64,000 bases of DNA. Origin: Escherichia coli. GTDB taxonomy: Bacteria > Pseudomonadota > Gammaproteobacteria > Enterobacterales > Enterobacteriaceae. Shown here piece after piece: positions 8,441 through 55,797 of this stretch. A program made the translations under genes and the position numbers. The notes under the pieces were generated by a model, which was not told the origin of the DNA, made no database searches, and saw only the letters and a program-made list of their open reading frames with translations. Positions within the stretch are counted from its first letter, which is position 1. Each line of letters starts with the position of its first letter. The stretch lies in NCBI GenBank assembly GCA_025336685.1, contig GCA_025336685.1_4717.1; one strand, given 5' to 3'.

Positions 8441-8469
8441 ACGGACGTAAAAAAATAACACATAGTTAA

Positions 8470-8505
8470 CCTTCTCCCCAACCCGATGAGGGAAGGGGAG
8501 AAGGG
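8470..8505. terminator. GC-rich hairpin between convergent genes (CCTTCTCCCC...GGGGAGAAGG), member of the junction hairpin family
   Basis: Inverted repeat read directly; lies between stop of 5534-8440 (+) and stop of 8517-8798 (-); followed by CTATG. Confidence 0.5.
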
Positions 8506-8516
8506 CTATGCGCTAT

Positions 8517-8798
8517 TTAATTATTTCGAGAGGTTAACCACGATTCAATTGCGGTGAGGTTGCATTTCAGTTCACGCCAACTAGGGTGTGGTGGGATCAC
8601 AGCACCTTTGTCAATTACGGTTAGCTGAACCTGGTATTTCTGTTGCATACGTGCTACCGTATCGCTTACCGAGAGGAAAAGCTGGTAACGTTCGTACGCT
8701 GTCAGTTCGCGGTCCTGATAAACCGCGTAGGTGGCTAACGTAACTTCGCGTAAGTCCTTTGCGTCCACAGAGACGGTGATGAGTTTATATTGACTCAT
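8517..8798 (-). CDS. small hypothetical protein (93 aa)
   Basis: ATG at 8798 with AAGGAAA SD. Confidence 0.6.
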   Translation of the reverse strand: MSQYKLITVSVDAKDLREVTLATYAVYQDRELTAYERYQLFLSVSDTVARMQQKYQVQLTVIDKGAVIPPHPSWRELKCNLTAIESWLTSRNN

Positions 8799-8817
8799 AC
8801 GGTTTCCTTATCGACTA

Positions 8818-8840
8818 GGGTATTGCAAACTACAATACCC
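8818..8840 (-). promoter_or_regulatory. hairpin GGGTATTG-loop-CAATACCC immediately upstream of the SD of 8517-8798
   Basis: 8-bp inverted repeat between stop of 8861-11419 and start of 8517-8798; no U-tract. Confidence 0.3.
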
Positions 8841-8860
8841 GTCATCGGATGATAACTTAA

Positions 8861-11419
8861 TTACTGCTCTTCACGTTCCAACAGATACTCGGAAGCGGTA
8901 ATACCGTTTACCGTACGTACCGCTTTCAGACGAGTATCGTCACTCAGAATCACGGTAACAGACTGCAGACCTTTTACTTTGGTCTCGAAGGTCTTGAATA
9001 CCTGATCCAGCATACGAGCAATGCTTGGGTTGGTTGCAGCCGATGCGTGAGTGTAACCGTTCTGGTTCAGCTTCAGAATCTTGGCGTTGGTTGGTACACG
9101 AAGAACAACATGCGGACGCATTGCGAACACACTGTGGTTAAACCAGTAAGCATCGTTACTATCTTCGTCAGTGACGATGTCTGGATTAACACGCATGTCT
9201 TCGGTAGCCGCACCCGCCAAACGACGTTCGATTTCGTCAGCATCCAGAGAGCCGTCCTTCTCCAGTTCTGCACGATACTCACTCATGGCAACCAGATGAC
9301 GTTCACGATTCGCTGCAGATTTTTCGTGAGCGGCTTTCAGGTAGTCATGCATGTTGTACAGTTCTGCCATGGAAAGACGAATGTTCCACTGACCTTCGCC
9401 GTCACGATTGCAGTAGAGACACTTCAGCATGTTGACCCAGGTGTAGTAGCAATTGGAGAACTCATCTTCAATGAACTTCTGATCCATTTTAAGATCGTGA
9501 ATCAGCCAACCGGACAGTTCTCCGATATCATCAACGAAGCTAGAAATGGTGGTTTCAGAGAAGTTCTTCGGTACGATACGTTTGATCAGCTTGTTAACGT
9601 CTTTGGTCATGCTATCATTCAGGAAATGCCAGATACGCAGAGGAATGACATCACGATACTGTTGCATGATCTGACGATAAGCTTTGATATCGTCGCTACG
9701 ACCTTTATCAATAGACAACGCGTCCAGGAATTCATGGATAGCATCCAGCTCTTTGTCGGTATAGGTTCCCAGATAGGAATTGACCGTGGCAAGGAATGCT
9801 AATGCGTCGTTTTGGTTGACGTCGGTGTTGGTCTGCTGAATGATCGCTACTGCAGCTTTGGTTTCAGCATCCTCAACGCTTGACGCTGCGATTGCGTCGG
9901 TAACAGTAAACAGTTTCATTTCGCGCTGTTCGCCGACAACGATCGGTTCGCGTTGAACCGGTTTGTTAAGACTAACGCGAACAACTTCTGCTTGCGCGAT
10001 ACGATCCAGTTTTACCATTTCCTGCTCCGCCATACGACGAGCGGTCGGATCTGATTCAAGTTCGATGTATTCCACTTCTTCCTCCGTGAGGGATGTAATG
10101 TCAACAATGGTTTCATGAAGAATTCCGTTTTCGTCGATACGTGCTCGACGAGCGAAGTGTCTGAAGTCATACAACGTTGGCCAGCGACAATTAGGCGCAT
10201 AGTCTTTGGCCTTCAGACGCATCTGCATAAATTCTTCATGTTGAACAACACGACCGTAACGCTTAGCATCTTCGGTCGCATCAATTGGATTAACGGTCTT
10301 TGTTACCGTAGCAGAACGAGCCGTACGAATGGGTTCCGGTTTAGTCTGCACTGGTTCAGGTTGAACGGATTTCTGTTGTCCAGCCTTAACATGCCATTCG
10401 GGTTCTTCGTACCGTTCAGCAAATTGCTCGGCTGCTGCAAAGATATCATTGATACCACCAATATCTCCTTCTGGATTCGTCGAATATATCCGTGGTTGCG
10501 GTGCCTCGTAACGCGGCGCTGAGGTAGCAGATGCGTCGTTAACGACAGGATCGTCATCGCCAACATCATACAAACGGTTGAACGCACAATCCTTCGAATC
10601 GATGTACGATGGAGTTTGTGGTTGGATAACCGTCGGTCGAGGCTGTGCGCCGTATCCCGGCATTGTTGGAGCCATACCACGCATAACTGCTGGGTTAGGT
10701 TGGTATTGTGGTTGTGGGTAGGTTCCGCCATACGTGGGATATGCAGGCTGTTGCGGTTGACCGTACCCACCACCAACCATCGCATTTGCTTGCGGTCCAC
10801 GGTAAGTCATCCCCAGTTGCATCACCTGTTGCTTCAGACCGCGGGACTTCTGCGCTATTTGTGCTAGACTCCCACTTTTATTTAGCTGCGTGTACTTATT
10901 CGCGGCTTCCGGGTTAATGCGCGATAATTCAATCGCACGATAATACTCCGGGTATTGATTGGCTTCAAAGAGCCACGTTACAAGGTGATACAGCGCAACT
11001 GTGCTCACAGCAGCAGAGACGATCTGGTCGTTGGACGCATTCTGCGGCATCGGGTTGATGTAAGAGAATACGTTCCAGCAACAGTCTTCAACAAGCGATT
11101 CCATCATCATGTCGTTATTGGTGTAACGTGAGACGAACTCGGTTTGTATTTTATCCTGTTGGGCGAAGTCTTTCAGGACATTGAAGACAGCTTGACGGAT
11201 TTTGACGATCGTCGCTTCTTGGGTGATGAAGTTATAGTTCTGCTGATATGATGGTTGCTGGTACTGTGGTGGTTGATAGGTGTTATTCGGGTATGCGCTG
11301 TACTGCGGTTGCTGGTACTGTTGTTGGCGAACCTGTTCAGCCGCATAATTAATCGTACTCGCATAAGGGTTTTCGTTGTAGCCCATTTGCTGATACATGT
11401 TGTTACTGCCATTATACAT
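8861..11419 (-). CDS. large hypothetical protein with Q/Y/P/G-rich low-complexity regions (852 aa)
   Basis: ATG at 11419; N-terminal 60 aa and an internal segment are QQPQY/GYGQPQ-type low complexity. Confidence 0.85.
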   Translation of the reverse strand: MYNGSNNMYQQMGYNENPYASTINYAAEQVRQQQYQQPQYSAYPNNTYQPPQYQQPSYQQNYNFITQEATIVKIRQAVFNVLKDFAQQDKIQTEFVSRYTNNDMMMESLVEDCCWNVFSYINPMPQNASNDQIVSAAVSTVALYHLVTWLFEANQYPEYYRAIELSRINPEAANKYTQLNKSGSLAQIAQKSRGLKQQVMQLGMTYRGPQANAMVGGGYGQPQQPAYPTYGGTYPQPQYQPNPAVMRGMAPTMPGYGAQPRPTVIQPQTPSYIDSKDCAFNRLYDVGDDDPVVNDASATSAPRYEAPQPRIYSTNPEGDIGGINDIFAAAEQFAERYEEPEWHVKAGQQKSVQPEPVQTKPEPIRTARSATVTKTVNPIDATEDAKRYGRVVQHEEFMQMRLKAKDYAPNCRWPTLYDFRHFARRARIDENGILHETIVDITSLTEEEVEYIELESDPTARRMAEQEMVKLDRIAQAEVVRVSLNKPVQREPIVVGEQREMKLFTVTDAIAASSVEDAETKAAVAIIQQTNTDVNQNDALAFLATVNSYLGTYTDKELDAIHEFLDALSIDKGRSDDIKAYRQIMQQYRDVIPLRIWHFLNDSMTKDVNKLIKRIVPKNFSETTISSFVDDIGELSGWLIHDLKMDQKFIEDEFSNCYYTWVNMLKCLYCNRDGEGQWNIRLSMAELYNMHDYLKAAHEKSAANRERHLVAMSEYRAELEKDGSLDADEIERRLAGAATEDMRVNPDIVTDEDSNDAYWFNHSVFAMRPHVVLRVPTNAKILKLNQNGYTHASAATNPSIARMLDQVFKTFETKVKGLQSVTVILSDDTRLKAVRTVNGITASEYLLEREEQ

Positions 11420-17429: not shown

Positions 17430-17834
17430 TCACAAACGACGCAGGCGATAATGGATGGAACGATTGGTGCAATATGAACGGAACAGCGGCAATTGCGCAA
17501 CTTCCGCAAGACTCATATTAATTCGCAGGTGTTCAATAACGGCGCTGTAGTTATCAGCAATACGATCGCTCAATAACTCTTCTGCCAATAAAGGAAGACA
17601 ATCGACAACAATCGCGATCACATCCTCATTAACATAACGCACCCGAACACTCAACGGACGTTTGTCTGGGTTGTAAGTTGGATCCGCCAAACGACGTTCA
17701 ATATCACGCGGATAGCTCGTCAGTAAATGGTAATAACCATTGTCATAACGATTGATGTACTCACACAGCACACCAACGTTCTTCTCTGGCGGTAAACCTG
17801 TTTCGTCATAGTGGATACGCAAACATACCACCAA
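17430..17834 (-). CDS. hypothetical protein, C-terminal ORF of a possibly frameshifted gene (134 aa)
   Basis: ORF-track start is TTG; overlaps 17806-18051 in another frame; no in-frame ATG near the 5' end. Confidence 0.45.
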   Translation of the reverse strand: MVVCLRIHYDETGLPPEKNVGVLCEYINRYDNGYYHLLTSYPRDIERRLADPTYNPDKRPLSVRVRYVNEDVIAIVVDCLPLLAEELLSDRIADNYSAVIEHLRINMSLAEVAQLPLFRSYCTNRSIHYRLRRL

Positions 17835-21215: not shown

Positions 21216-22118
21216 TTAGAAATTATTGCCGAACCGGTTATGGTTGTATGGTTGGTAGTGTCCGTAATTGCCTGGGAAGCCACCATACGTCGTAGGCTCC
21301 GGTTTAGGGACTTCCATAATCGGATTTTTAGAATTGATCGCCATCACGTAAAGGGTTACGGGTGATGCTGCGTGGCCCATTTCGACGACCACACGGCGGA
21401 TATAATCAATGTATGCTGTTATTGCAGGCGTCAGTTTGTCTCCTTCGGTAGTTATAACGGTGCCGTCGGAAAGAATCTCACGAACCGCGCACCATTTACC
21501 AAGATGAACTCCTTGCTGCGGCTTTACTCCAGCAGAGATAGAGAGATAGGTATCGTACGTCGTTTGATGATACGGATGACTATAAATAGATTCCGCTTTG
21601 TTTTCGTCTTTCCCTAAGTACTCGCCTTGCTTAGGAGTATGAGTTGATATCATATCGGTATTTTCCACGAATGTCTTTCCTTCGAGTTGTTTGATTAATC
21701 GTTTAACCGATTCAGTTATGTTGTTGTGTCTAGGGATCAGCTTTAAGTAAACAGTCGGTAACTGGATTGTTGACCCATCACTACTGCGCGGATAAGATAA
21801 TTTGTAAAACTGTTCAAAAATCCGCCGTAACGCTTCGTTGTCTGAAGTTGCCAATTTAACATAGGAGCATCGTCCTTTAGCATTGGGATTGTAGAGAAGG
21901 AGAATAACGTCTTCGTCAGTACGTGTATCCTGAGGATGACAAGCGATGTAGTGAATGGGAATAGCCGTATCTTTTTCGTCTCCCGGTTTGATAGACAATG
22001 AAAAATCATGAGTTTCTTTTAACGTTCGTAACGTGCAGGATGCGTCGTCACTATTAAGTAAGAACACACCGAAACGCACGCTTTCGTATGCTGACGGGTC
22101 GCGTATTAATAAGGTCAT
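21216..22118 (-). CDS. hypothetical protein, tandem paralog family with HP.H.TYD.YL motif (about 300 aa)
   Basis: ORF-track start 22196 is TTG; ATG at 22118 has AGGAG SD at 7 nt; shares HPYHQTTYDTYLSISAGV with 22204-22977. Confidence 0.8.
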   Translation of the reverse strand: MTLLIRDPSAYESVRFGVFLLNSDDASCTLRTLKETHDFSLSIKPGDEKDTAIPIHYIACHPQDTRTDEDVILLLYNPNAKGRCSYVKLATSDNEALRRIFEQFYKLSYPRSSDGSTIQLPTVYLKLIPRHNNITESVKRLIKQLEGKTFVENTDMISTHTPKQGEYLGKDENKAESIYSHPYHQTTYDTYLSISAGVKPQQGVHLGKWCAVREILSDGTVITTEGDKLTPAITAYIDYIRRVVVEMGHAASPVTLYVMAINSKNPIMEVPKPEPTTYGGFPGNYGHYQPYNHNRFGNNF

Positions 22119-22203
22119 GTTCGGCTCCTTGATTACGATAAGGATGATTGCGGTTTTGTGGTGCTGGTAGGGCCCTAAACAAAGGAACCCTACCAATATT
22201 AGG

Positions 22204-22977
22204 TTATTCAGGATCGGCGTAGAAATGGTGAGGATAGCCGGAGTACGATCCTGCGTTACCGGCTATGGATTCTTTCTGGGAATCGACGACGAGCGCATAG
22301 AACTGTCGGGAATTTGTTAGCGTTGAGAAATAAGCGGAAAGGACTTTTTCATTCAACGCATCGCAAGGTAGACAGGTGCGACCGCAAAACGTAACGATAC
22401 GGCCGTCAGGATAGATCTCACGAATCATTCTCCACTCACCGATATCCACTGGTGATGGTGCTGCTACACCACCTGTTATCGTTAAGTAACGATCGTACGT
22501 GGTATGGCATTCAGGATGAATATAGATCGGCTTGTTCGTTTCGACAGGTTCCGAAGTGTCTCGACGACTAAGGAGTTCAACGACTTCAAGATAAATCGTT
22601 GGTAGATCGCGGAGAATACCGGTGTTACGACGTTTCTTTGTGATTCGCGGACGAATCTCGTTAAGAGCGTATTCGAGCTTACGTTCAGCTTCGTACGCAT
22701 CGAGTTTTATTAGGTGGCCCGGTTCATCGGAATGATCCTGAGTTATGTAAACGAAATACGTGTTGTCTTTTGCAGCGCGAAAGATTCGAGCGACCTTAAA
22801 TGTTTCTACAGTGCGATAACCAAGGCGCGATTGATTTTCCACAGGAGAAAATATCCAATGTCGTCCTTCGTCCGCCCCAACAATTTCGTTGAAACTATCC
22901 GTTTGTTCTGGGACCTGGTAGTCAGCCATTAATGTATCAAGAGCGTCATCGGCCAGTTTGGTGTAAATATCTGTCAT
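22204..22977 (-). CDS. hypothetical protein, tandem paralog of 21216-22118 (257 aa)
   Basis: ATG at 22977 with GAGGA SD; HPECHTTYDRYLTITGGV motif. Confidence 0.8.
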   Translation of the reverse strand: MTDIYTKLADDALDTLMADYQVPEQTDSFNEIVGADEGRHWIFSPVENQSRLGYRTVETFKVARIFRAAKDNTYFVYITQDHSDEPGHLIKLDAYEAERKLEYALNEIRPRITKKRRNTGILRDLPTIYLEVVELLSRRDTSEPVETNKPIYIHPECHTTYDRYLTITGGVAAPSPVDIGEWRMIREIYPDGRIVTFCGRTCLPCDALNEKVLSAYFSTLTNSRQFYALVVDSQKESIAGNAGSYSGYPHHFYADPE

Positions 22978-34353: not shown

Positions 34354-35643
34354 TTATGCTTTTTCGGTCGCTGCGTTGAAGTATTTCGCAGCAGCAAATA
34401 CAGCATCCGCATACTGACGTACAGAGGCACGGAGGATCTTAGTTCCTAATACAGAGCTTAAACGAGCCATTTCTGTTACAGCTGTGATATAAGGACGTAC
34501 GGTTTCACGATCAGCCTCAGGTAACTTGTCGAGCATTTCGCCCCACTTCGTTTTGATCTGCATTCCGTTGAGTTTAGCGTCTCGTCCTACAGAGCGCGCC
34601 AAACTTTCAACTTTATGCAAATACGTCGGTTCCACCATACGGAATGCCTTCAGATATGCAGTCAATGCGCTTTTCAGCTCATTCCCATCGTGGAAAATAT
34701 TCGCATTTTCGATTTTATCTGTTACGGTGTCAACAACTTCAATATGAACATCCTTCACCAAAGCACATGCTTTAACGACATCCTTCTCTTTTTCTAGCGC
34801 ATCCAACCCTTTAACGACATATTGTTTTCCACCACTTTCTGGAAGTCTGAACGCCCTCAGTGCGGCTTTAGTGGCCTGAAGATACTCGTCTAGGACACGA
34901 TCAAGCGTTGTTAAATCAGTTAGGACATTAATGTCGTAGTTGATATCGCCGATCTTAGTAAATAAGAAATCTGATATCGTCGCACTTGCAGCCAGTTGTT
35001 CGATATGTTTGCTAACGGATGCCGCATCAACAGATTTTGCGTTCGGGAACATATTAACCATATTCCCGGTAGGCTTCTCTAGTTGTTTGATCTGACGTTC
35101 CCCTTTATTGACTTCGGATGCAATTTTGGTGATCTCAGCATAAGCCAGAACGAGATTCTTGAACAACATCTGGAACAGTTTGAACAGTTGCTCAGCAATA
35201 TTTGCAATGATTACCCAAACTGCGTATAACGCTTGTGCTGCGCGTTCTTTAAAGCCTTCCAGTACGATAGCCTGTCCTTCCACTAATTTATCATTAGCCT
35301 GGAACATGTCTTCATCAGACATCCCCAGGTTTGCTGCTGATGTCGAAGCGATCTGACGGATAAGTGCGACGTCGCTCACACGTGCTTCCGAGATCGTTGG
35401 TGCGATCATGTACGCTGTATCTTCCAGCGTTGCTGAGGTACGCACTGCAATTTCAGCCAGTTCGCTGGATTCATCGATTGTCTCGTCGGTATGTCGAATC
35501 ACCAACTCAACTTCACCCTCTTCAATTTCTGCGTTAGGATCGTGTTGCTCCGTCGGAATCGTCGCGAGAAGATCTTCGGCGCTGAGCAATGCGAGTTCGA
35601 ATGCGTTTTTATTGACGTTGTCAAAAAGAGAAATACGTGCCAT
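34354..35643 (-). CDS. head-internal (inner-body-like) protein paralog (429 aa)
   Basis: ATG with AGGAA SD; VSDVALIRQIASTSAANLG and IVLEGFK segments. Confidence 0.85.
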   Translation of the reverse strand: MARISLFDNVNKNAFELALLSAEDLLATIPTEQHDPNAEIEEGEVELVIRHTDETIDESSELAEIAVRTSATLEDTAYMIAPTISEARVSDVALIRQIASTSAANLGMSDEDMFQANDKLVEGQAIVLEGFKERAAQALYAVWVIIANIAEQLFKLFQMLFKNLVLAYAEITKIASEVNKGERQIKQLEKPTGNMVNMFPNAKSVDAASVSKHIEQLAASATISDFLFTKIGDINYDINVLTDLTTLDRVLDEYLQATKAALRAFRLPESGGKQYVVKGLDALEKEKDVVKACALVKDVHIEVVDTVTDKIENANIFHDGNELKSALTAYLKAFRMVEPTYLHKVESLARSVGRDAKLNGMQIKTKWGEMLDKLPEADRETVRPYITAVTEMARLSSVLGTKILRASVRQYADAVFAAAKYFNAATEKA

Positions 35644-39465: not shown

Positions 39466-40121
39466 GCTTTCGCAGATGACTGTCGCACGAAGCAGCGTAC
39501 GAGCGTAGCTAACGTAGAAGCCCAGGGACTCAACAAGACGTACCAGAGCGGCTTCTTTGAAACTCAGACCGTCGGCAGCAACATCGATTTCCAGGTTTTT
39601 GTTAACACGTTTAACAATTTCTGGAATCAGATCAACAGCATTACGTAGCGCTATGAACGTTTTCTACCCAGCTTCCAGAGCGAACGCGGGTTAAACGCTG
39701 ATGCAGATCCTTGTCAGCGAGTTTCCATAAGGCGCTTTCCCTTTTGGAGAAGCGGAGCGGATGTCTCGTAGGCGGAATCGCGGTGTTGTTGATTTCGTCA
39801 CGGATCGATTCAAGTGCGTCAGCAACACCGGCAGGTTTAAAAGCGGCTTCAAACTGCGAATGAATTCTTTAAAATCAATTGCCATGAGTGAGCAATTCCG
39901 CGCTATTTCGAACAGGTTACGTGTGTTAACGAATCTGTGGGACGTTTCCGGTACGGAGGCCTGGAGGATCGTCAGAAGATCAACCCGAGGTTGACGAACT
40001 GTTGATTTTTCCAGCTGTTTGAAGCTTACTGTGGTCCCTTGATCCAAGCTGTGGAAATAGAAGGTCACCATCTCTTCAGCTTGTCGATGATGATCAACTG
40101 CATTGCAAGGGCTTCAGCCAT
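39466..40121 (-). pseudogene. frame-disrupted 5' region of the gene ending at 38989 (at least two frame changes)
   Basis: Three minus-strand frames each carry protein-like open stretches (40121-40065, 40071-39691, about 39880-39664) separated by frame switches; ATG at 40121 lies 13 nt after the upstream stop. Confidence 0.4.
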
Positions 40122-40133
40122 GACTTTCACGTG

Positions 40134-41021
40134 TTATAGCCGACAAACGACGTCCGATTCATGCCTGATGGCTTCCTGGTTAGCCTTAGAGATGATATAG
40201 GTGGAGGCGATTGCTCCAGAAGAAGGGATCTTTGTGCTCGCTGCAGCTTTTGCGGCATTGATGCGCGCAGCATTAACAGCCTTGCGGATACCCTCTTTAT
40301 CCATACGTGAGATTCGTTTGTGTTCACGAACCAGGTCACTAAGCAGGATCATGTCGCTCCAGAAAGACAGCTCACCCGCCATCATGCGATGCCAACGTGC
40401 TCGCCAGGTGTTCTGTGGGCCGCCGATCGCTAAAATCGACGCAAGCACTTCCGCTGGTGAACTTGCAATACGCATGCTGATGTTCAATGGCATTTTCATC
40501 GTTGCCTGACCATCGGTCAGCGTCACGGTTAAGAACTTGCCGGTGACCGCGTTTGCATCTTTGTTCAGCAATTCGATCGCTGCGTCGCTGGCCCCAACAT
40601 CGAGGCTATTTTTTTGTTTCCCCAGCAGGTTGAATCCTTTGTCATCAAGGAAAACAAGGCTTTTGCTATCCGCACTTTCCAGTGCTAATTTAACAGCCTT
40701 ATCCATCATGTTAGCGTTACGGTTTGGATTCACACGACCCAGCGTTTTATCGACACTGATATTACCCACCTGCATGATGGTGTTCAACGCCAGTAAATAG
40801 AACCCGGTATACATATTTTCAGCGGTGCGCATGCAGTTGCCTAACGCATTGCGTGCGTCGCTATAATACAACTCACGTTCAAAGATCAACGGCGCGATAA
40901 CGCGTGAAGGTTGTGAGAGTTCAACCAGCGAACCTGGCTGGATAAGTTTATTAACTTCGTAGACTTTAGCGATACCGGACGCAACAACGTTAACAGCGTC
41001 GGCAATTTCTGATGCTACCAT
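40134..41021 (-). CDS. hypothetical protein (295 aa)
   Basis: ATG at 41021 with AAGGA SD. Confidence 0.8.
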   Translation of the reverse strand: MVASEIADAVNVVASGIAKVYEVNKLIQPGSLVELSQPSRVIAPLIFERELYYSDARNALGNCMRTAENMYTGFYLLALNTIMQVGNISVDKTLGRVNPNRNANMMDKAVKLALESADSKSLVFLDDKGFNLLGKQKNSLDVGASDAAIELLNKDANAVTGKFLTVTLTDGQATMKMPLNISMRIASSPAEVLASILAIGGPQNTWRARWHRMMAGELSFWSDMILLSDLVREHKRISRMDKEGIRKAVNAARINAAKAAASTKIPSSGAIASTYIISKANQEAIRHESDVVCRL

Positions 41022-41055
41022 ATTGAAATCCTTATTTACAAATAAAGGAAAGAAA

Positions 41056-41265
41056 ATGTCTAATTACTACGACCAAGCTATTCAAACCATTCAGGAAGAT
41101 AATGCGTCGTTAACACCCGAAGCTGTGGAGGCAGCGGGCAATGCGGTGTTATTCACTGATTCAGATTGGGCAATGGCGCGGAAGAATATTCGTACCAGTG
41201 TCGGTCAAGGGACATACGGACAGTATCGCCAGACGGTATCGGAATGTGTCACCTATTCCGGGTAA
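41056..41265 (+). CDS. small ORF (69 aa), possibly the 5' part of the downstream gene joined by a +1 frameshift
   Basis: ATG with AAAGGAAAG SD only 34 nt from the divergent start at 41021; overlaps 41141-42259 by 125 nt in another frame. Confidence 0.35.
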   Translation: MSNYYDQAIQTIQEDNASLTPEAVEAAGNAVLFTDSDWAMARKNIRTSVGQGTYGQYRQTVSECVTYSG

Positions 41266-42259
41266 CAGTCCGATTCCGATTAACCGCGATCATGCCGGTA
41301 TTACCTTCTTCACACGACCTAATTTACATCTTACCGACGCGAACTTAAAACGAGATCGACGTTTGTGGTCGTTACGTACGGATAACCCTAACAGTATTCA
41401 GGCTGTTGTCCGTGACTACTTGGACCCTGTGGGTGCCAGAAAGCGGAACCATCGAGGACGTGCCATCGTCGATGAGCGCAATCCATTCATAAGTATACTG
41501 ACGGACAACCTGACGGATATCAGCGGTTTCAATGACATGGAAATGCAGGTCTATCAGGGTAAACCGGGATTACGCCAAGAAACCGTTGTGATGGCTGACG
41601 GTTCAGTGGATATGTTTCAACCCTATAACCTGAACGCGACGTTCAAGAACATCATGGGTAACCCCATCATGTTCCTTCATTATATTTGGTTGATTTACAT
41701 CGCTGGTGTGCATAATGGTGAACTGACGCCAAGCCCTCAGGCCATCATCGACAATGAAATGGATTACTGGACAAGATGTTATCGTATCATCCTGGATCCG
41801 ACTGGGATGTATGTTCGTTATATCTTCGCACCGACCGCGATGTTTCCTGTCGGGTTACCGACTGGTAATATGGCTAACTACAGCATCGATAAACCCTTCA
41901 CGCAAGATAACGAACGTATCACTATTCCATACCAAGCGGTTGGTAACAACGCATTCGATGAAATTCTGAAGGATGAATTCAATCGACTTGTCCTGATGTT
42001 CTATTACGGTGAGAACGATACCCGTACGTTCCTTGAAGATGAGGAGTTGGTACCTATTTCACCCTACGAGCGTCGAATCATGTCGTATCGTGTCGATATG
42101 TATCCATTTATTCATCCGTTGACCTCAGAGCTTCTTTGGTTCGTACCCGCTGATGCTTACAACGAATTCTATCTGGATCTTGAGCCATCGGCGTTACCAC
42201 CGGATACGTTCAGTCGCGATCTTGTCCGTACCACCATTCCGCAAAATTACGAGGGATAA
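41141..42259 (+). CDS. hypothetical protein (372 aa)
   Basis: ATG at 41141 with GGAGG 9 nt upstream; first gene of a plus-strand cluster. Confidence 0.7.
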   Translation: MRCYSLIQIGQWRGRIFVPVSVKGHTDSIARRYRNVSPIPGNSPIPINRDHAGITFFTRPNLHLTDANLKRDRRLWSLRTDNPNSIQAVVRDYLDPVGARKRNHRGRAIVDERNPFISILTDNLTDISGFNDMEMQVYQGKPGLRQETVVMADGSVDMFQPYNLNATFKNIMGNPIMFLHYIWLIYIAGVHNGELTPSPQAIIDNEMDYWTRCYRIILDPTGMYVRYIFAPTAMFPVGLPTGNMANYSIDKPFTQDNERITIPYQAVGNNAFDEILKDEFNRLVLMFYYGENDTRTFLEDEELVPISPYERRIMSYRVDMYPFIHPLTSELLWFVPADAYNEFYLDLEPSALPPDTFSRDLVRTTIPQNYEG

Positions 42260-42262
42260 TAA

Positions 42263-43378
42263 ATGAGCGTAACCAACAAAGATCTTGCTGAACAGCTCAA
42301 TCGCTATATGCTTTCACCCATTGAAATGCAGGCTGTTGCAAGCGATATGATCCGTTTGGCTTCCGATGGTGAGTTAACCCTGGTTGACCCCAGCTGTCCG
42401 TTTGTTTATCTGCTGGAGGTTGCAACGGCGACGGCTGCGAACCAGAACGCGCGGGATGAATCCCGTGTTCGCGAACTGTATCCGAAACTTGCAACCAACT
42501 GGAGCCAGCTCTATCGTTGGATGTATGACGAGTCGTACGTCGGACGTTTCGCAATGCCGGGTAAAACGGAAATCATTTATTCGTTAGGGTATCAGGAAAT
42601 CCTCGATCGTGCTGTAGAGATTCCAAACACCGCCGCATCCGATGATTTAAGCCGTTCTTACAGCCGTAAGTTAGTGATACCACGTACGACGGTGTTTACG
42701 GTAGCCGGAATGGATTTCGGGCTGCATTATCCCATCGAAATCCAAGTGCAGGCGCACGACCAGATACGCGTTGTTTATAACACTGATAACATCAGCCCGC
42801 TGCAAACCTTGGAGAGTAACCAAGTTGAGTATGGTGTTGTTCGTGTAAAAGCGGGTAAAGTGTTGGTGATGCGTATCCCACTGTTCCAGTTTAAAACGCT
42901 GGTAAAAGATGTGCCGTTTAACAGCGTTCACGGGATGAACAGCAGCATTACCTTCGAAGATCAGTTTTACCATTGTCGTGCGTACATGTCGTCGGATAAC
43001 GATACCTGGACGGAGATAGCGACAACCCACAGCCAGCAGATCTACGATCCGTTAACACCGACCATCGCGTTACAAGTAGAAGGGAACAAACTTAACTGGC
43101 GTGTTCCTGAAATTTATTTGTCTCAAGGTACGATGGATAAAAGCACCATTCGACTCGAGGTGTTGACGACGAAAGGGAAAATCAGCGTCGACCCGTCTGA
43201 TTACGACGTGACTGATTGGAAAGATAATTACATCGATCTGTCACCAAAAGCCGAACAGAAATACAGTGCGCCGCTAAGTGCGTTCAACATTAAAGGGATT
43301 TATAGTGAAGGGGCGTTGTCGGGTGGACGATCTGCGTTAACATTCGAGGAACAACGTGAACGCGTTATGGCGAAGTGA
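42263..43378 (+). CDS. hypothetical protein (371 aa)
   Basis: ATG with GAGGGA SD; 3-nt gap to upstream gene. Confidence 0.85.
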   Translation: MSVTNKDLAEQLNRYMLSPIEMQAVASDMIRLASDGELTLVDPSCPFVYLLEVATATAANQNARDESRVRELYPKLATNWSQLYRWMYDESYVGRFAMPGKTEIIYSLGYQEILDRAVEIPNTAASDDLSRSYSRKLVIPRTTVFTVAGMDFGLHYPIEIQVQAHDQIRVVYNTDNISPLQTLESNQVEYGVVRVKAGKVLVMRIPLFQFKTLVKDVPFNSVHGMNSSITFEDQFYHCRAYMSSDNDTWTEIATTHSQQIYDPLTPTIALQVEGNKLNWRVPEIYLSQGTMDKSTIRLEVLTTKGKISVDPSDYDVTDWKDNYIDLSPKAEQKYSAPLSAFNIKGIYSEGALSGGRSALTFEEQRERVMAK

Positions 43379-44712
43379 ACAAAACCGGAGTACCGATCAC
43401 GGGAACACAGGTAGAGCTGGTGCTTCAAGATGCGGGTTATGGGATGGTAACCACTATCGACAACGTAACCAATCGTTCGTTCCTGGCAACCCGAGATTTA
43501 CCGCAATTGAGCGACAGCGTGCCGCAAGCCGGTTCGTTGATGGGGTCTTTCTATACTTCAGCCGCAGCGTTGGTGAAAAGTAAGTTTGTCGCCGATAACG
43601 GCGATCGTATCACGATTAAACCGGACTGTCTGTATCGCGACAGTAACGGAAGTATCGCACTGTTGTCGGACGATGAAATTGACCGTATTAATGCAGGTAA
43701 CTCTGATGCGAAGTTGAACGCGGTAAACAACGCCATGTTGTTTTACAGCCCGTTTCATTACGTGTTGGATGCGACAAGCGATTTCGACATTCATGCTTAT
43801 TACCTGGATGCTCCTAAGATCGGCACACAAGCATTCCTCGACGCGAACGAGACAATCCCGTTAACCGCTATGGTGACCGGATACCGTCTGGATCGTATCG
43901 CTGAAGGATATCGTCTAAGCCTCATTGTAGAAGGTAACGACGCATGGAAGGCGCTCGACGATAAAAACGTGCACGTGCAGCTGGGGTTCAATCCGCGGGG
44001 TGAGGGTGATTATGCGACGATGTTAGCATCACCGACAACCGATGAACAAGGTCGTCGTTTGTTCACCTTCGATATCACCACGAATTATGATTTCACGCGA
44101 ATCCTGGCCGATGATTCCACGGCGTATGAACCATATATCGCATTGACCTCTTTCTCGATGTATGAATCGACACCGCGGGATTACTGGGCATCACTGCAGC
44201 AGTATTTGGAAATCTTCCATGTGGTGACGGATTATGCGCCGGAAGATGTCGACGGTATTTTACACAGTGCTTCCGATAATTACCTGGTTAAGAAACTTAC
44301 GCTTCAAAATGGGTATTGTTTCTACCGTGAACGTCTCACCGCAACCTTTGGTTATGATCTGGATGGTCTTTGGATGCGCTCTCGTACGGTAGCCTCGGAG
44401 ATTACGTATAAACGTTACACCGAGAACATTCCGTGGGTGTATGAAGAAGATATTCCAGCGACGGATGAGACCGGTTCGGTTATCATTGAACAAGGTGATG
44501 ACGGTACGCTGTCAGTTAAATACCTGCATCGTAAAGGTGACCCGAAATTAAACAGTGATGGAAGCCAAGCCTATCGTTATCTGAAAGGCGACATCATGAA
44601 AGATAATTACGGTAATCCGATCCTGTCGATGAACGTGAAGTTCTGCGTAGCCTGGACATGTTCTTTATTGATGCGTCGTATCTGCTTTAGCGAACGATAC
44701 GGACGTGATTGA
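43375..44712 (+). CDS. hypothetical protein (445 aa)
   Basis: GTG start overlapping upstream stop (GTGA); start uncertain. Confidence 0.8.
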   Translation: MNKTGVPITGTQVELVLQDAGYGMVTTIDNVTNRSFLATRDLPQLSDSVPQAGSLMGSFYTSAAALVKSKFVADNGDRITIKPDCLYRDSNGSIALLSDDEIDRINAGNSDAKLNAVNNAMLFYSPFHYVLDATSDFDIHAYYLDAPKIGTQAFLDANETIPLTAMVTGYRLDRIAEGYRLSLIVEGNDAWKALDDKNVHVQLGFNPRGEGDYATMLASPTTDEQGRRLFTFDITTNYDFTRILADDSTAYEPYIALTSFSMYESTPRDYWASLQQYLEIFHVVTDYAPEDVDGILHSASDNYLVKKLTLQNGYCFYRERLTATFGYDLDGLWMRSRTVASEITYKRYTENIPWVYEEDIPATDETGSVIIEQGDDGTLSVKYLHRKGDPKLNSDGSQAYRYLKGDIMKDNYGNPILSMNVKFCVAWTCSLLMRRICFSERYGRD

Positions 44713-45257
44713 GTATCGTAACACGATTCCTACGCAGCTTATCGGAGTGGATCAAGAACGATATCATCACATTCAGGAATTTCTGTTATGAGGAAACAGA
44801 GATTTCACTGTATCCTAAACAATCGTTGGGGTATGTGGATGTTATTGTCGAAAACGGATTGGAAACAACGCTTCCTGCCGCTCTATCGTTCAACGTGACG
44901 CTTTACTTACCAGCTAAGCAATACGCGGATTTGGATCTCCGTCAAGTCCTTCAAGCGATGGTATCGAAAGTCATCAACGAATGCTTAACGTCCCGTACGG
45001 TGGCTAAAGCAGAAATGATCGCGATGATTCGTGAGGAGGGTGGTGACGACATCCTTAACGTTGAAATCGATGATTTTGGACCAGGTAAGAACCTCAGTGT
45101 TTATACTGCGAAGAACGATGGTGTTCGCTGCGCGGTGAAGAAAGAGCTTTATGTGAAAGCGGATGGTATCTTGTCCGTACGTGAAGCGATCGATGTAAGT
45201 TTTGTGAAACATGCACAAAGCAACAGTTCGGCATTAGCGCAAGGCCTTCGTGTCTAA
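44709..45257 (+). CDS. hypothetical protein (182 aa)
   Basis: TTG start overlapping upstream stop (TTGA); no in-frame ATG until aa 88; start uncertain. Confidence 0.65.
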   Translation: MSIVTRFLRSLSEWIKNDIITFRNFCYEETEISLYPKQSLGYVDVIVENGLETTLPAALSFNVTLYLPAKQYADLDLRQVLQAMVSKVINECLTSRTVAKAEMIAMIREEGGDDILNVEIDDFGPGKNLSVYTAKNDGVRCAVKKELYVKADGILSVREAIDVSFVKHAQSNSSALAQGLRV

Positions 45258-48171: not shown

Positions 48172-50967
48172 TTAAGCTAATTTACCGAAACCGGCTTTCT
48201 GCAGTTTCTCGTTGATGATTTTCGCTTCAGCGAAGACGTAATCACGATACGCAGTGACTAACCCATCCACCCGTGAACGCAAGGCTTCTTCGAAGCTATA
48301 CCACGCAGCGATTTCACGAATCTGTGCGTTGATATAATCAACGGTTGAGCGAAGCTCGGTTGCATTTTCTTGCGGAATGGCTTTCACCTGGCGAGCAACG
48401 TCATTTAAACGACGGAACTGTGTTTCGATTTCTTTAAACTTACTGTCGGCAAGTTTGCTGAATTCGTCACCGGAACGGGTGAATAACAGATAGCTGTTGC
48501 CGTCAAGCGCTGTCGCTAACTGCTGAAGAACGTTGGTATCCGGATACACAGGAGTACCGCTTTGCAGTACTTTCTCACCGAATTCCGCGAAGTCCTTCGG
48601 CGGTAAGTGCGCAGACGTTGTTAACTCGTTGAAACGGAAAGTCAGCGAATTATCATACAGCATCCGGTACGCTTCCATACCCTGTTGCATGGTACCGGCC
48701 AGGTTAGCCAGACGCGGAGCAATCTCACCCTCTTTAGCGCGTTTCTGGTCTTCTAACGCCCCTTCGAGTTCTTTACACTGGTCGTTCAGATACACGATAC
48801 GATCGGGACGCAGACGACGCATCTCACGAAGAATAGTATCCAGCTTACCTTCCTGGAAATAACCCAACGTTAAAGACGTACACGCTTGCTGAAGACGATC
48901 GAACACCGGCAAGGTCACCATCTCTTTACGGATACCATCAACAATCGCAGAAACAGCCGAAAGTTTCTGTTCGGTGGTTAATGGGGCGTCAGAGACCGAC
49001 TTGCTGGGCGCGCCAACAACGTTACGCATTGCGTCGGTATCCTCGGTTTTATCAACCTCTTTACGAACATTCTCATCAGGAACATAAACGTTCGCGTTAC
49101 GTTTCGCCTGCTTGATGGCGTCGTTGGCTGCTTTTTCGGTGGCCGCTACGCTATCGGCACGTTTCTTCAAGAGTTCGATAATCCAGAGCAACAGACGACG
49201 AATCGCGGTATAGGCCGTCGTGATGATGACACCGATAACAGCCATCTTCATGATACCGAACGATTCCATGGTCGGCTCTAACGCCTGGTCTGGCATATAC
49301 CGTTCACGCAGTTCCAGATAGATCTGCTCATCTGGTTTGCTGATCTCACCACGATGCGAAGTCCGATAGATGGCTTCGTCAATCTCAACAAGATCTTTGC
49401 GTGCCTGACGGTCTGTTTCGGTCAGATAAGCGCAGCCGGATACATCGTCTTCAAAACTTTCGAACTTGAAAAAGTCATTGACATCGATCTTGATCTTCTT
49501 CGCTTCATTATCGACATCAATAAAATCTTTTTTCTGTGCTTGATATTCCGCTTTGATGTCGTTCACCGGCTTCAACGCACGTTCTTTTAATGCCTGTACG
49601 ATCTGTTTCCAGTCAGCGTCGCGCTCAAGAACAAGGAAGTAATTCTTGAGTTCAAAAGCACGGTAACGCGCAACGAGTTGTTCTACCTGAACATGAGCGA
49701 GTTGCACGTCCATCAGCCAACGCGACATTGCCGAGATCAAACGACTATAAGCAAGTAATGTTTGATACGTCAGCTTCATGTGCTTTTCGTACAGCTCAAT
49801 ATCGCCGTCTTGAATATCAGCCGTCGGGTTCATTTCCTTCGTTGCTTTGAAGATTTGTTCGGCTTCATTTAAAGTCTGTTCGAATTTGACTTCATTAAAC
49901 GCGTCGAACGGCTCAGCCAACACCGCCATTCGATCGCGAAGTTCACGAACCCAGGCGTCTTTATTGTTGCGAATAGCTGCGTCATCGTGAAGTTCGGTTT
50001 GATGTTTCTGTACCCATTCTTCGACGATATCAGCGGCGGCAACAATTCCGGTACCATCGGAAACTAACGGAACAACTCCAGCAAGTACGCCTACACATGC
50101 CGGAGTTTTCCAGTAATCGTTCAAAGCGTTTCTGAATTCAACGATGGATTGTACGTTTGGTACCATATCCAAAAACGTACTGCCGTTACGGCTCATTGTC
50201 GTTACGATATCAGCGAATTCCTTCTGCTTGGCGGTAACAAAAGGAACCAGGACCATAAGCCATTCAGCAACCGATTTCGCTTTTTCTTTCAGGTTCTTGT
50301 CTGCGATTTCTTTAAGACTAATCGCACCACCATAACCTGCAAGCTCTTTATATACGTCGCTAAGTGTCATCTGTTTATCCAACATTTCTTTGAAACGTGG
50401 ATAATCAGCACCTAACGCATCGATAATATCGTTGATTACGTCGTCGGTTGTCGCGATAAACTTCTTCGTATCGACGTTTGAATATTTCCAGACGTACCGT
50501 ACGGCTTTCTTGATTCCTGCAAAGATAAACGCCCAAATACGCTTGATGAGTTCCCAGACTTTCTTCGCGCCATCGACAAACAGTTTAGAGACCTTGGCAA
50601 CGAATCCTTCCTGTACCAACTCAACGCCGTTACGTGATGGGATTTCGGTGAAGAAAGCATCCGGTAGTTGTTTCGGGAACGCGTCGCCAAGACGCATACG
50701 CAGTTCGGGTACATCAGCACGAGAAATACCCCGTGTTACTAACTGTTCGTGAAGACGAACGTTTTCTTCGCCAGAGGTCACGAATTGGTTAACATCGAAG
50801 GAAACCATCGCTTCCTGATCTTCGGTGGTGACGACGCTTGAACCATCGCTGGTTTGGATGTCTTCGTCAGGGAACGCCATGAGCATACCGTGACGCATTT
50901 CAACCACTCCGTAATCGGTTGCTAAACCGAATTCGTTGTGGTCAGGGGTAATAACTGGGATACTCAT
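48172..50967 (-). CDS. large hypothetical virion-associated protein (931 aa)
   Basis: ATG at 50967 in ATGA overlap; N-terminal VELVQEGFVAK...KKVWELIKRIW segment resembles the head-internal paralog motif. Confidence 0.9.
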   Translation of the reverse strand: MSIPVITPDHNEFGLATDYGVVEMRHGMLMAFPDEDIQTSDGSSVVTTEDQEAMVSFDVNQFVTSGEENVRLHEQLVTRGISRADVPELRMRLGDAFPKQLPDAFFTEIPSRNGVELVQEGFVAKVSKLFVDGAKKVWELIKRIWAFIFAGIKKAVRYVWKYSNVDTKKFIATTDDVINDIIDALGADYPRFKEMLDKQMTLSDVYKELAGYGGAISLKEIADKNLKEKAKSVAEWLMVLVPFVTAKQKEFADIVTTMSRNGSTFLDMVPNVQSIVEFRNALNDYWKTPACVGVLAGVVPLVSDGTGIVAAADIVEEWVQKHQTELHDDAAIRNNKDAWVRELRDRMAVLAEPFDAFNEVKFEQTLNEAEQIFKATKEMNPTADIQDGDIELYEKHMKLTYQTLLAYSRLISAMSRWLMDVQLAHVQVEQLVARYRAFELKNYFLVLERDADWKQIVQALKERALKPVNDIKAEYQAQKKDFIDVDNEAKKIKIDVNDFFKFESFEDDVSGCAYLTETDRQARKDLVEIDEAIYRTSHRGEISKPDEQIYLELRERYMPDQALEPTMESFGIMKMAVIGVIITTAYTAIRRLLLWIIELLKKRADSVAATEKAANDAIKQAKRNANVYVPDENVRKEVDKTEDTDAMRNVVGAPSKSVSDAPLTTEQKLSAVSAIVDGIRKEMVTLPVFDRLQQACTSLTLGYFQEGKLDTILREMRRLRPDRIVYLNDQCKELEGALEDQKRAKEGEIAPRLANLAGTMQQGMEAYRMLYDNSLTFRFNELTTSAHLPPKDFAEFGEKVLQSGTPVYPDTNVLQQLATALDGNSYLLFTRSGDEFSKLADSKFKEIETQFRRLNDVARQVKAIPQENATELRSTVDYINAQIREIAAWYSFEEALRSRVDGLVTAYRDYVFAEAKIINEKLQKAGFGKLA

Positions 50968-52968: not shown

Positions 52969-54138
52969 ATGAGCGAACAAGAACGAAAACCTAAGAAGAA
53001 ACTGCTCGGTATTCAATGTCGACACATCAGCTATAACGAAGCGAACGATGGTAGTAAGAACGACCTCATGATCGCAAAAGAGATCATGTTCTTCGATGAT
53101 AATACGCAAGCGACGAACCTTCGCTTCTTTGAGAATTACAAACGTCCGTTTTGGGTGACGGTAGAGAGTAAACGTAAGAACAAATATAAAAAGGAAAGCG
53201 AGAAGCTCTCGCATGTGCGTCGCTACGATGTCCGCCAAAGCGAACTGGTTGAAAAGATCAGCTCGGTACTTTATAAAAGACGTGCTGACGATAACACCCG
53301 TTTACAGCAGCTCGCACGGAGTCCCTACCTCTATGGCACGGACGTTAGCGCCAGCTGTTATTTAAAAACCCAATATAATACAAAATGGCCGGAATACGTC
53401 GATAAATTACCCGCTTCTATCGCCTGTTTCGATATCGAAACCGACGTTGTCCATGGACACGGTAAGATCGTCTGTATGTCTATTACAATGGGATACAATG
53501 CGATACTTTGCTATACCAAGGACTTCGTTGGTCATATTCCGAATGCGATTGAGAAAACCCATGAGAAGATCCGATATTACCTGGCCGAACGTCTGAACAC
53601 CAAAGAAGATCCTCACGCGTTCGAAAAATATCAGTACGATGTTCGAATCGTAGAAAGTCCGGCGCAAGCGGTCATCCAATGCATGCAGAAGGTTCACGAA
53701 TGGCAACCGGATTATCTCCTTGGCTGGAATATCGCGTTCGATATTCCGCGCATGCTCCAGGCACTGAACGAGGAAGGGTATCGTCCCGAGGATGTTTTCT
53801 CCGATCCTCGCGTACCCCCTAAGTATCGTATTGCTCGCTGGGTACCACCGAAAACCGACAAGGTATCTGCTTCGGGTCGTAAAACCAACCTTACCCTCGA
53901 GCAGACCTGGCCGATGTTTTATACGATGGCTACGTATCAGGTTATGGATGCGATGTGTGGTTATAAGTTCGTTCGTTTAGGAAGACCGGATGAGGGACGT
54001 TACTCACTCGATGCGGTATTAGAGCGAAATAAATGCCATACGAAATTAAAAGCAATTCCTGGTACAGAAGGGTTCACAGAGCTCGCCTGGCACGAAAGAG
54101 ATGCAAACGAACCATCAAATCGACTACGGCGTATATAA
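52969..54138 (+). CDS. family-B DNA polymerase fragment: N-terminal 3'-5' exonuclease domain (389 aa)
   Basis: Exo I CFDIETD, Exo II YLLGWNIAFD, Exo III-like YQVMDA; weak SD. Confidence 0.8.
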   Translation: MSEQERKPKKKLLGIQCRHISYNEANDGSKNDLMIAKEIMFFDDNTQATNLRFFENYKRPFWVTVESKRKNKYKKESEKLSHVRRYDVRQSELVEKISSVLYKRRADDNTRLQQLARSPYLYGTDVSASCYLKTQYNTKWPEYVDKLPASIACFDIETDVVHGHGKIVCMSITMGYNAILCYTKDFVGHIPNAIEKTHEKIRYYLAERLNTKEDPHAFEKYQYDVRIVESPAQAVIQCMQKVHEWQPDYLLGWNIAFDIPRMLQALNEEGYRPEDVFSDPRVPPKYRIARWVPPKTDKVSASGRKTNLTLEQTWPMFYTMATYQVMDAMCGYKFVRLGRPDEGRYSLDAVLERNKCHTKLKAIPGTEGFTELAWHERDANEPSNRLRRI

Positions 54139-54292
54139 CCTTTGGGATAACCAGGGTATCGAGGCGTTGGACCAGAAAACGAACTATTCTGACATCCCTA
54201 TTCGTTTGGCGGCGTCAGTTTGAAGATTTCAGTTCTAACCCTAAACGTATCTGCGACAAACTTTCTTCGTTTATCTTAACCGTGGGGAAGTC

Positions 54293-54712
54293 ATGGGATG
54301 CACTGCCGACGACATGACCCAGGAAGAAGATAAGTGGGTTATCTCACGAACCGGACATATCGTCACATTACCGTGCGATCTCATGGCAGACAACGGCATT
54401 CATCTCTTCTGGGATATGCCTAATCTGAGAAGTTATATCCGTCTATTCGTTGCAGACCTCGACATAAGCAGTTCATATCCAAATGGGCAGATCCTGCTCA
54501 ATCTATCCAGAGCCTGTGTTTTCCGTGAGCTATCACGCATTGAGGGCGTCTCTGACTATCAATTCAGGAAGTTAGGTATCAACTTTATTACCGGAGGTAA
54601 AACGAACGCTGTAGACTTCTGTAGAATCGTTTATAAAGCACCATCGATGTTTGAACTCTTAGAGCATTTCGATGCGACGCGTCCGAAAGAGGAAGCGCGG
54701 ACCATCGAATGA
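54293..54712 (+). CDS. family-B DNA polymerase fragment carrying motif A (139 aa), separated from the exonuclease ORF by frame changes
   Basis: VADLDISSSYPNG matches pol B motif A (DxxSLYPS); no motif B or C before the stop at 54712. Confidence 0.55.
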   Translation: MGCTADDMTQEEDKWVISRTGHIVTLPCDLMADNGIHLFWDMPNLRSYIRLFVADLDISSSYPNGQILLNLSRACVFRELSRIEGVSDYQFRKLGINFITGGKTNAVDFCRIVYKAPSMFELLEHFDATRPKEEARTIE

Positions 54713-54777
54713 TTCAAGTGATACGATAAGGGTCATCCCGTTGATCCTCGCCTAACAAAAAGAAAACGCATGCGAAG

Positions 54778-54809
54778 CCCCTCCCCCTGGCGGAAGCCGG
54801 AGGGAGGGG
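54778..54809. terminator. GC-rich hairpin with GGAA loop followed by TTTTATGTGTTTTTAATT; bidirectional terminator
   Basis: Between stop of the polymerase fragment and stop of 54828-55277; T-rich tracts on both sides. Confidence 0.55.
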
Positions 54810-54827
54810 TGGAGGTTTTATGTGTTT

Positions 54828-55277
54828 TTAATTATTGTTGATGGGGTTATCGTCCGGCTTATATTCGATGCCGTAGGCGACGTAACGGTCTGTCGTATGG
54901 ACGACAAGCGAGATGGGGAAATCATAATGCGTGGTTTTGTCTCGGACGAGCTGAGTAAAGAGATCCATATAACGTATTAAGTCTTCACTGGTGTAATCAG
55001 AAGGGAAGAAGACGTCGATGGTTATTGAATCTTCATAGAGGCGTATAACCAACTTATCCAGAAGGTCGGCATATTGGTTAGCCGGGGTGACGTCCAGCTC
55101 ACAGATATCACGATCTCCTTCGTCTCGTGATACCCACATCATGGTATCCTGTAATGAGGTTTCAAGGATCTCGAAAATGCATTTTGCTGTAAGTTTTAGT
55201 TTATTTGTTACGTCATGGTTAGGTGAATAATGGTCACGGATGTTTTTCACTGCGTCTTTGATAGAGAAAGTCATCAT
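54828..55277 (-). CDS. small hypothetical protein, paralog of 55288-55797 (149 aa)
   Basis: ATG with AGGAG SD; shares ILETSLQD / LLESSLQD segment with next gene. Confidence 0.75.
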   Translation of the reverse strand: MMTFSIKDAVKNIRDHYSPNHDVTNKLKLTAKCIFEILETSLQDTMMWVSRDEGDRDICELDVTPANQYADLLDKLVIRLYEDSITIDVFFPSDYTSEDLIRYMDLFTQLVRDKTTHYDFPISLVVHTTDRYVAYGIEYKPDDNPINNN

Positions 55278-55287
55278 TGATGCTCCT

Positions 55288-55797
55288 TCAAATGAAATTA
55301 ATACGTGCGGCTGTCGAAACGAGTTCGCTTGTAAAGCAATGCTTACCGTCGGTATTTACCGTGTGAGTAAGTTTACAAGCCTTAGTGGTTGGGTTAGCGC
55401 CAATGACCAGGACGGTCGTCATATCGAACAGTTCCACACGTTGGAGAAATGCCGTATCGGCTACCTTCTGTAAACCGGTTGCTTCAAAATCGATGTGGTC
55501 GTTAAGCGATACCAATTGGATTTCAATACGTTCTTTGAAAAGTTTAAACGTTACTGAAAACCGATGAGGTTCGGTATTAAACCATAAAGGTCCGCGTTGG
55601 AAGTGCTGATATGCTTCATTCGTGTTGTTCTCGAAAACCCAGTAGTCGTGGACAAGAGAAGCGTCTTGTAACGAGGATTCCAGGAGATCAAACGTCTTAT
55701 TTATTGCTTTCTCAAGCATAGGTGCTAGTGAACCCGGGTATCCAGCAAATGCTGTTTCGGCAATCGATTTTATTGATACGATGTTATTCTGGTTCAT
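55288..55797 (-). CDS. small hypothetical protein, paralog of 54828-55277 (about 169 aa)
   Basis: ORF-track start is TTG; ATG at 55797 has AAGGAA SD at 8 nt. Confidence 0.75.
   Translation of the reverse strand: MNQNNIVSIKSIAETAFAGYPGSLAPMLEKAINKTFDLLESSLQDASLVHDYWVFENNTNEAYQHFQRGPLWFNTEPHRFSVTFKLFKERIEIQLVSLNDHIDFEATGLQKVADTAFLQRVELFDMTTVLVIGANPTTKACKLTHTVNTDGKHCFTSELVSTAARINFI

Follow-up and report, generated by a model that had tools for sequence, protein, structure and literature searches.

The interval 41056-42259 of the window, the whole 64-kb stretch of DNA that was analysed, is one gene for the tail tube initiator, a protein already characterised in Goslar-like and phiKZ-like jumbo phages, and as written it is divided into two overlapping ORFs by a 2-nt deletion that is private to the window. 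In all likelihood, this deletion is an error of sequencing or assembly, and nothing about it is programmed. The loss of GA between 41217 and 41218 interrupts the tail-tube-initiator gene at codon 55 and shifts the remaining 346 codons into the +1 frame, which yields both the 69-codon ORF1 and an ORF2 that begins with 26 out-of-frame filler codons (Table 1). Locally poor sequence or assembly quality would be the source of the patches of private indels and private substitutions that are observed in the window.

Table 1 Features of the tail-tube-initiator locus and of its two neighbours, in window coordinates
Feature	Position	Strand	Details
Single gene, orthologue of Goslar gp62 / phiKZ gp88, tail tube initiator	41056-42259	+	401 codons with GA restored; interrupted as written
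ORF1	41056-41265	+	ATG 41056, TAA 41263-41265, 69 codons
Shine-Dalgarno sequence of ORF1, AAGGAAAG	41045-41052	+	
ORF2	41141-42259	+	ATG 41141, 372 codons
GGAGG ahead of the ORF2 ATG	41127-41131	+	
Imperfect 15-nt direct repeat, CCTATTCCGGGTAAC / CCGATTCCGATTAAC	41252-41284	+	encodes PIPGN/PIPIN
Window-private 2-nt deletion	41217-41218	+	window ACATAC^GGACAG (41212-41223), relatives ACATACGAGGACAG; GA missing
Patch of four window-private substitutions	41097-41175	+	41097 and 41098 (AG/GA swap), 41163, 41175; shortly before the deletion
TGG in frame 2	41174-41176	+	from private A>G at 41175, which gives I40M in the frame of the gene; TAG in the ten relatives compared
gp61 homologue, truncated	40134-41021	-	295 of 368 codons; private indels
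gp63 homologue (phiKZ gp87-like baseplate wedge)	42263-45257	+	997 codons in Goslar; three frames, private indels

The window derives from a Goslar-like jumbo E. coli phage, with about 95% identity to vB_EcoM_Goslar. A megablast search with the window matched only Escherichia phage vB_EcoM_Goslar (MK327938 / NC_048170), with which the window is colinear over Goslar positions 28372-92441, and megablast against complete E. coli genomes and PLSDB plasmids gave no match. Identity to Goslar is 97.9% over 40900-42300 and about 93-95% across the remaining window. In the gene equivalent to Goslar gp62, the window and its relatives are 97.4-98.3% identical, which points to a distinct strain, and no identical intact twin is found among these relatives.

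With regard to the identity of the gene, Goslar exhibits a single CDS over the same interval (Goslar_00062, 67766-68971, 401 codons), annotated as weakly similar to phiKZ ORF088. Once the GA is put back, the repaired translation shares 99% identity with Goslar gp62 over its full 401 residues. It matches the structure PDB 11lx_AJ, 'Tail Tube Initiator Protein gp62', with 99% identity over 1-401 (E=1.7e-275) and PDB 9xqs_I, 'PHIKZ088', with E=1.7e-50. Residues 34-371 of the repaired protein match the Pfam family PF23971 (Phage_TTP_15) with 265.9 bits for a cut-off of 27, and the protein also matches phrog_3196 (E=2e-93). The gene neighbourhood is conserved, with the gp61 homologue divergent upstream and the wedge gene gp63 downstream. 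Family match, structural homology and neighbourhood are therefore all those of a tail tube initiator, and only the single uninterrupted frame is missing from the window.

The phiKZ gp88 protein is the tail tube initiator, which forms a six-copy ring connecting to the tube and starts tube assembly (PMC13250141), and Goslar gp62 was identified as the tail tube initiator in a cryo-EM study (bioRxiv 10.64898/2026.04.21.720040). In these phages, the six-copy ring lies atop the baseplate hub and the tube protein stacks on it (PMC13250141; bioRxiv 10.64898/2026.04.21.720040). Mass spectrometry of Goslar virions detected gp62 at its full 46.2 kDa. The closest known equivalent of the window gene is Goslar gp62 (YP_009820747.1 / QBO63855.1; PDB 11lx chain AJ), which shows the same synteny, a 34-nt gap separating it from the divergent gp61 homologue and the gp63 wedge gene coming next. 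The window copy differs from it by the absence of GA at codon 55 and by four or five amino-acid changes (N15D, I40M, S81A, I270T, D368A). phiKZ gp88 (PHIKZ088; PDB 9xqs chain I) is of the same PF23971 family and aligns across the junction, residues 46-383 of the repaired protein corresponding to chain residues 11-345, but at 349 aa it is the smaller protein, with no counterpart to the first ~35 residues of the Goslar type.

The layout described in the earlier note was verified on the sequence: the coordinates, both Shine-Dalgarno sequences, the 34-nt gap between the divergent minus-strand start at 41021 and the start of ORF1, the 125-nt overlap of ORF1 and ORF2, the +1 frame of ORF2 relative to ORF1, and the repeat are all as reported. 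The note had placed the junction in the repeat, at 41230-41290, which is not where the homology changes frame. The switch from frame 1 to frame 2 occurs at codon 55, between 41217 and 41218, about 35 nt upstream of the SPIPGNSPIP repeat. ORF1 thus comprises 54 genuine N-terminal codons followed by 15 out-of-frame codons (GQYRQTVSECVTYSG) and the TAA, and ORF2 comprises 26 out-of-frame codons (MRCYSLIQIGQWRGRIFVPVSVKGHT) followed by the genuine codons 56-401. The ATG and GGAGG of ORF2 are plain coding sequence (…AVEAAGNAV…) within the intact gene. SPIPGNSPIP is simply a motif conserved at the protein level, which the intact Goslar protein also has and the homologue P0002 has in part.

The comparison with relatives accounts for this layout. 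In the pairwise alignment of the window and Goslar, the GA gap at 41217|41218 is the sole gap in the gene, and tblastn matches Goslar residues 1-54 to frame 1 (41056-41217) and all later residues to frame 2. All 14 related loci that were retrieved (Goslar, 2 IMG/VR genomes, 6 ENA contigs and 5 further metagenome contigs) exhibit the GA and an uninterrupted frame, with CAAGGGACATACGAGGACAGTAT in every case. The possibility of an indel, which the earlier note had raised beside two others, is therefore borne out, as the window shows a 2-nt deletion relative to every relative examined. A pattern allowing 0-3 nt at the gap found no copy of the deleted junction in IMG/VR, metagenome contigs or GTDB genome contigs, where only GA-containing forms or nothing were obtained. 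The window-private variants around 41097 and 41175 are likewise absent from IMG/VR. Neither the ORF2 product nor the gp56 homologue nor the truncated piece of gp63 has an exact record in a gene-position collection.

More distant homologues lead to the same result. P0002, a protein of 420 aa with 68% identity, aligns as a single protein across the junction, where it reads …GRGTYEDSIARHYR…, and three homologues with ~35% identity (P0003 to P0005) also run across it. Residues 11-19 of phiKZ gp88 align to residues 46-54, which are in the ORF1 frame, and the alignment then proceeds in the ORF2 frame. The homologue alignment that the earlier note had proposed thus gives a single protein covering both frames, and homologues that start at the equivalent of 41141 with no similarity to the ORF1 peptide were not found. 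In PDB 36za, chain hB models Goslar gp62 residues 37-397 continuously, starting at D37; the break thus falls within the ordered, modelled region, to which residues 37-54, encoded in ORF1, also belong. Peptides such as TSVGQGTYEDSIAR would be expected of the intact gene.

The substitutions are also those expected of a single frame. Beyond the deletion, the differences from the relatives number 13-24 that are synonymous in the Goslar frame and 1-3 that are not; the 54-codon upstream part exhibits 2-3 synonymous and 2-3 non-synonymous differences, which are too few for a selection test. The overlap at 41218-41265 carries two substitutions, each of which is silent in frame 2 but alters the amino acid in frame 1. 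These counts, taken downstream of the deletion, show that selection probably acts on the full-length Goslar frame and that the gp62 gene is under strong purifying selection. The length of ORF2 depends on a further private change. In the ten relatives compared, a TAG closes the ORF2 frame after 11 codons from the 41141 ATG (the stop is codon 12), and the frame reaches the ATG and GGAGG in the window only because the private A>G at 41175 removes this TAG.

Four of the six private substitutions of the gp62 gene are found within ~120 nt upstream of the deletion, and the other ~1040 nt exhibit only two. By our own binomial estimate, the probability of finding at least four of six in the 162-nt N-terminal part is ~0.004. 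The private A>G at 41175 also yields a second exact copy of GGGCAATG (41136-41143 and 41168-41175), 32 nt after the first, and the AG/GA swap at 41097-98 brings that site closer to the GGAAGA at 41180. This second copy and the resemblance to GGAAGA may be a coincidence or may hint at the origin of local errors.

The gp62 gene is not the only one to be affected. The window has counterparts of 48 Goslar genes, of which 40 are intact, and indels break the frame of the other 8 (g32, g42, g47, g60, g61, g62, g63 and g68). At every position of the private indels in 39654-43375, at least three relatives agree mutually against the window, and in most of the window-private indel columns it is the window that lacks the bases. 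Private substitutions were counted in bins along an alignment of six sequences covering 36.1-43.9 kb: bins that contain private indels or border on them have 12, 12 and 4, the bin just ahead of the 43375 deletion has 10, and most of the rest have 0-5. A dense patch, 39654-40167, combines 24 private substitutions with about 16 window-private indels of 1-2 nt, most of which are deletions, and runs from the C-terminal end of the gp61 homologue into the N-terminal end of the gp60 homologue, the latter being truncated to 158 of 300 aa. In Goslar, both gp61 and gp60 are virion-packaged proteins that are injected into the host (bioRxiv 10.64898/2026.04.21.720040).

Several of the other broken genes encode structural or replication proteins. 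The gp63 homologue, which corresponds to a baseplate wedge protein in both Goslar and phiKZ (gp87) (PMC13250141; bioRxiv 10.64898/2026.04.21.720040), exhibits indels at 43375 (-1), 44625 (-1), 44685 (+2) and 44747 (+1). At 43375, the 1-nt deletion and adjacent substitutions (GCGGGTGTG > GCGAA-GTG) create the stop/start overlap GTGA. The homologue of gp32, an upper wedge protein, shows six indels relative to Goslar in 569-670, which reduce its ORF to 201 aa. The gp42 homologue exhibits a +1 insertion near 17813, and the homologue of the DNA polymerase gp68 exhibits seven indels within 54095-54262, its ORF being reduced to 389 aa. In one of the public contigs (ENA ERZ28658542 scaffold_426, 7210-10210), the gp63 homologue is likewise not one gene, being called as pieces of 100 aa and 530 aa; this is probably due to a scaffold gap, and indicates that public Goslar-like assemblies have local defects of their own.

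As the baseplate wedge proteins (gp32, gp63), the tube initiator and the DNA polymerase are all broken, the sequence as written is not that of a viable phage. As the private indels come in patches together with private substitutions and hit at least seven further genes, their most likely origin is locally poor quality of the sequence or assembly, and the lesions are most likely technical rather than present in the phage DNA. Against this reading, the deletion at 41217|41218 and several others lie outside homopolymers, a pattern that no single sequencing platform classically leaves. A few indel sites were inspected by eye for Dam/Dcm motifs, a possible nanopore error signature; none is present at 41217|41218, which leaves this idea unsupported. 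The value of the finding is one of quality control: the window is best regarded as holding patches of unreliable sequence, and other findings in it that depend on short ORFs, overlaps, split genes or apparent frameshifts, above all those in 569-670, near 17813, and in 39654-40167, 41097-41218, 43250-43750, 44625-44747 and 54095-54262, need to be checked against Goslar first. The split of the tube initiator itself teaches nothing new on recoding.

It is rather unlikely that the 2-nt deletion is genuine in the sequenced DNA and that a defective or minority genome, such as a non-viable variant in a metagenome or lysate, carries the gene as a pseudogene. The position of the deletion outside a homopolymer would fit with such a lesion, as would the fact that the window represents a distinct lineage with its own substitutions, and the sequence alone does not separate a real lesion from an error. 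Nevertheless, a genuine mutation must coincide with about 30 further private indels that break frames in no fewer than seven other genes, including that of the DNA polymerase, in a genome where 40 genes are intact and well conserved and where the gp62 gene is under strong purifying selection. Moreover, the lesions lie in patches of raised private substitutions, unlike what gradual decay would produce.

A split that is real and tolerated appears very improbable. In this case, the C-terminal 346 residues would be made alone from the 41141 ATG, by virtue of the private TAG>TGG change at 41175, and ORF1 would encode a separate 69-residue peptide. This private substitution removes the only frame-2 stop between the 41141 ATG and the deletion, which is readable as an adaptation, and its chance occurrence was roughly estimated at ~2%, if private substitutions are evenly spread over the gene. 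However, this ~2% test is post hoc, as the finding was chosen for its long overlap, and the change at 41175 sits in a four-change patch beside the deletion, which fits with a local error patch. The ordered residues 37-55 would be replaced by unrelated sequence, and the neighbouring genes are broken beyond such a rescue. More generally, there is little chance that the deletion is real in a viable phage that makes the initiator as two polypeptides or from the 41141 ATG; if it were, the ordered N-terminal strand, residues 37-55, would be dispensable or supplied in trans. The peptides specific to the split product would be …GTYGQYR… and MRCYSLIQIGQWR….

Programmed +1 ribosomal frameshifting, the second possibility raised by the earlier note, is hardly credible. 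It would join ORF1 and ORF2, for instance if the glycine tRNA slipped, in the manner of prfB, from GGG to GGU at GGG-UAA (41260-41265). GGG-UAA-C is indeed the only site of the overlap that allows P-site re-pairing in the +1 frame, and a stop codon comes next. However, the 14 relatives all do without a shift, and one continuous frame encodes the more distant homologues too. The homology switches at 41217/8, 45 nt upstream of GGG-UAA, so a shift at GGG-UAA would lose the conserved EDSIARRYRNVSPIPG and place 15 unrelated residues there instead, and at the switch itself, ACATAC|GGACAG, re-pairing of the P-site tRNA is impossible. No Shine-Dalgarno-like stimulator was found upstream of 41260. Neither conservation, nor a shift-prone site at the switch, nor a stimulatory element was thus observed, and we rejected this candidate. 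The trans-frame peptides expected of a shift at GGG-UAA would be …CVTYSG-NSPIP… and …CVTYSGNSPIPINR.

The likeness to prfB, which encodes the E. coli release factor 2, is limited to a short upstream ORF ending in a stop codon and followed by a downstream ORF in the +1 frame, GGG-UAA-C being superficially like CUU-UGA-C. In contrast to prfB, the two-frame layout is found in no relative, the upstream Shine-Dalgarno-like stimulator is absent, and the homology switches 45 nt before the stop.

That the two ORFs are independent genes overlapping out of frame, also proposed in the earlier note, can be dismissed with near certainty: each has a start codon and a Shine-Dalgarno-like sequence, but homologue comparison refutes this arrangement, as the ten relatives compared close the ORF2 frame by the TAG while their ORF1 frame runs for 401 codons, the stop of ORF1 being out of frame there, and as neither a family match to ORF1 alone nor a homologue of the first 26 residues of ORF2 was found, so the two ORFs are not both conserved.

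Other candidates were rejected as well. Transcriptional slippage does not apply, since no homopolymer run (typically at least 8-9 A or T) occurs anywhere in 41200-41270. A gene-60-style bypass was rejected because landing on the next GGA (41241) after the GGA at 41218 would miss the ORF2 frame, and no take-off and landing codons are matched in the right frame. An RNA element was rejected because the junction region has no match in Rfam and the local RNA fold is unremarkable (z = -1.65). A small hairpin around the stop of ORF1 has arms that, according to our reading of the alignment, are weakened by synonymous changes in the relatives.

Outside the initiator gene, the window departs from Goslar in several segments. 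At 54457-55790, the NUMOD1/HNH homing-endonuclease gene gp69 and gp70 of Goslar (about 81182-82967) are absent and other ORFs are present instead; the indel patch of the DNA polymerase gene lies directly upstream of this breakpoint. At 21216-22977, in the interval between the gp46 and gp47 homologues, the window carries ~1.7 kb that is extra relative to Goslar and that comprises two minus-strand ORFs of 326 and 257 aa, which are apparently paralogous and have the common motif HxxYHTTYDxYL…G.W…REI…DG. In PDB 36za, chain hB is labelled 'Tail Tube gp217', although its sequence is that of Goslar gp62 residues 37-397, which suggests that the label was misassigned, either in the entry as deposited or in the local copy of it. 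The homologues of gp56 (34354-35643) and gp65 (48172-50967) exhibit 75% and 85% amino-acid identity to Goslar, respectively, compared with 95-100% for their neighbours; both are intact, and they may be exchanged cassettes.
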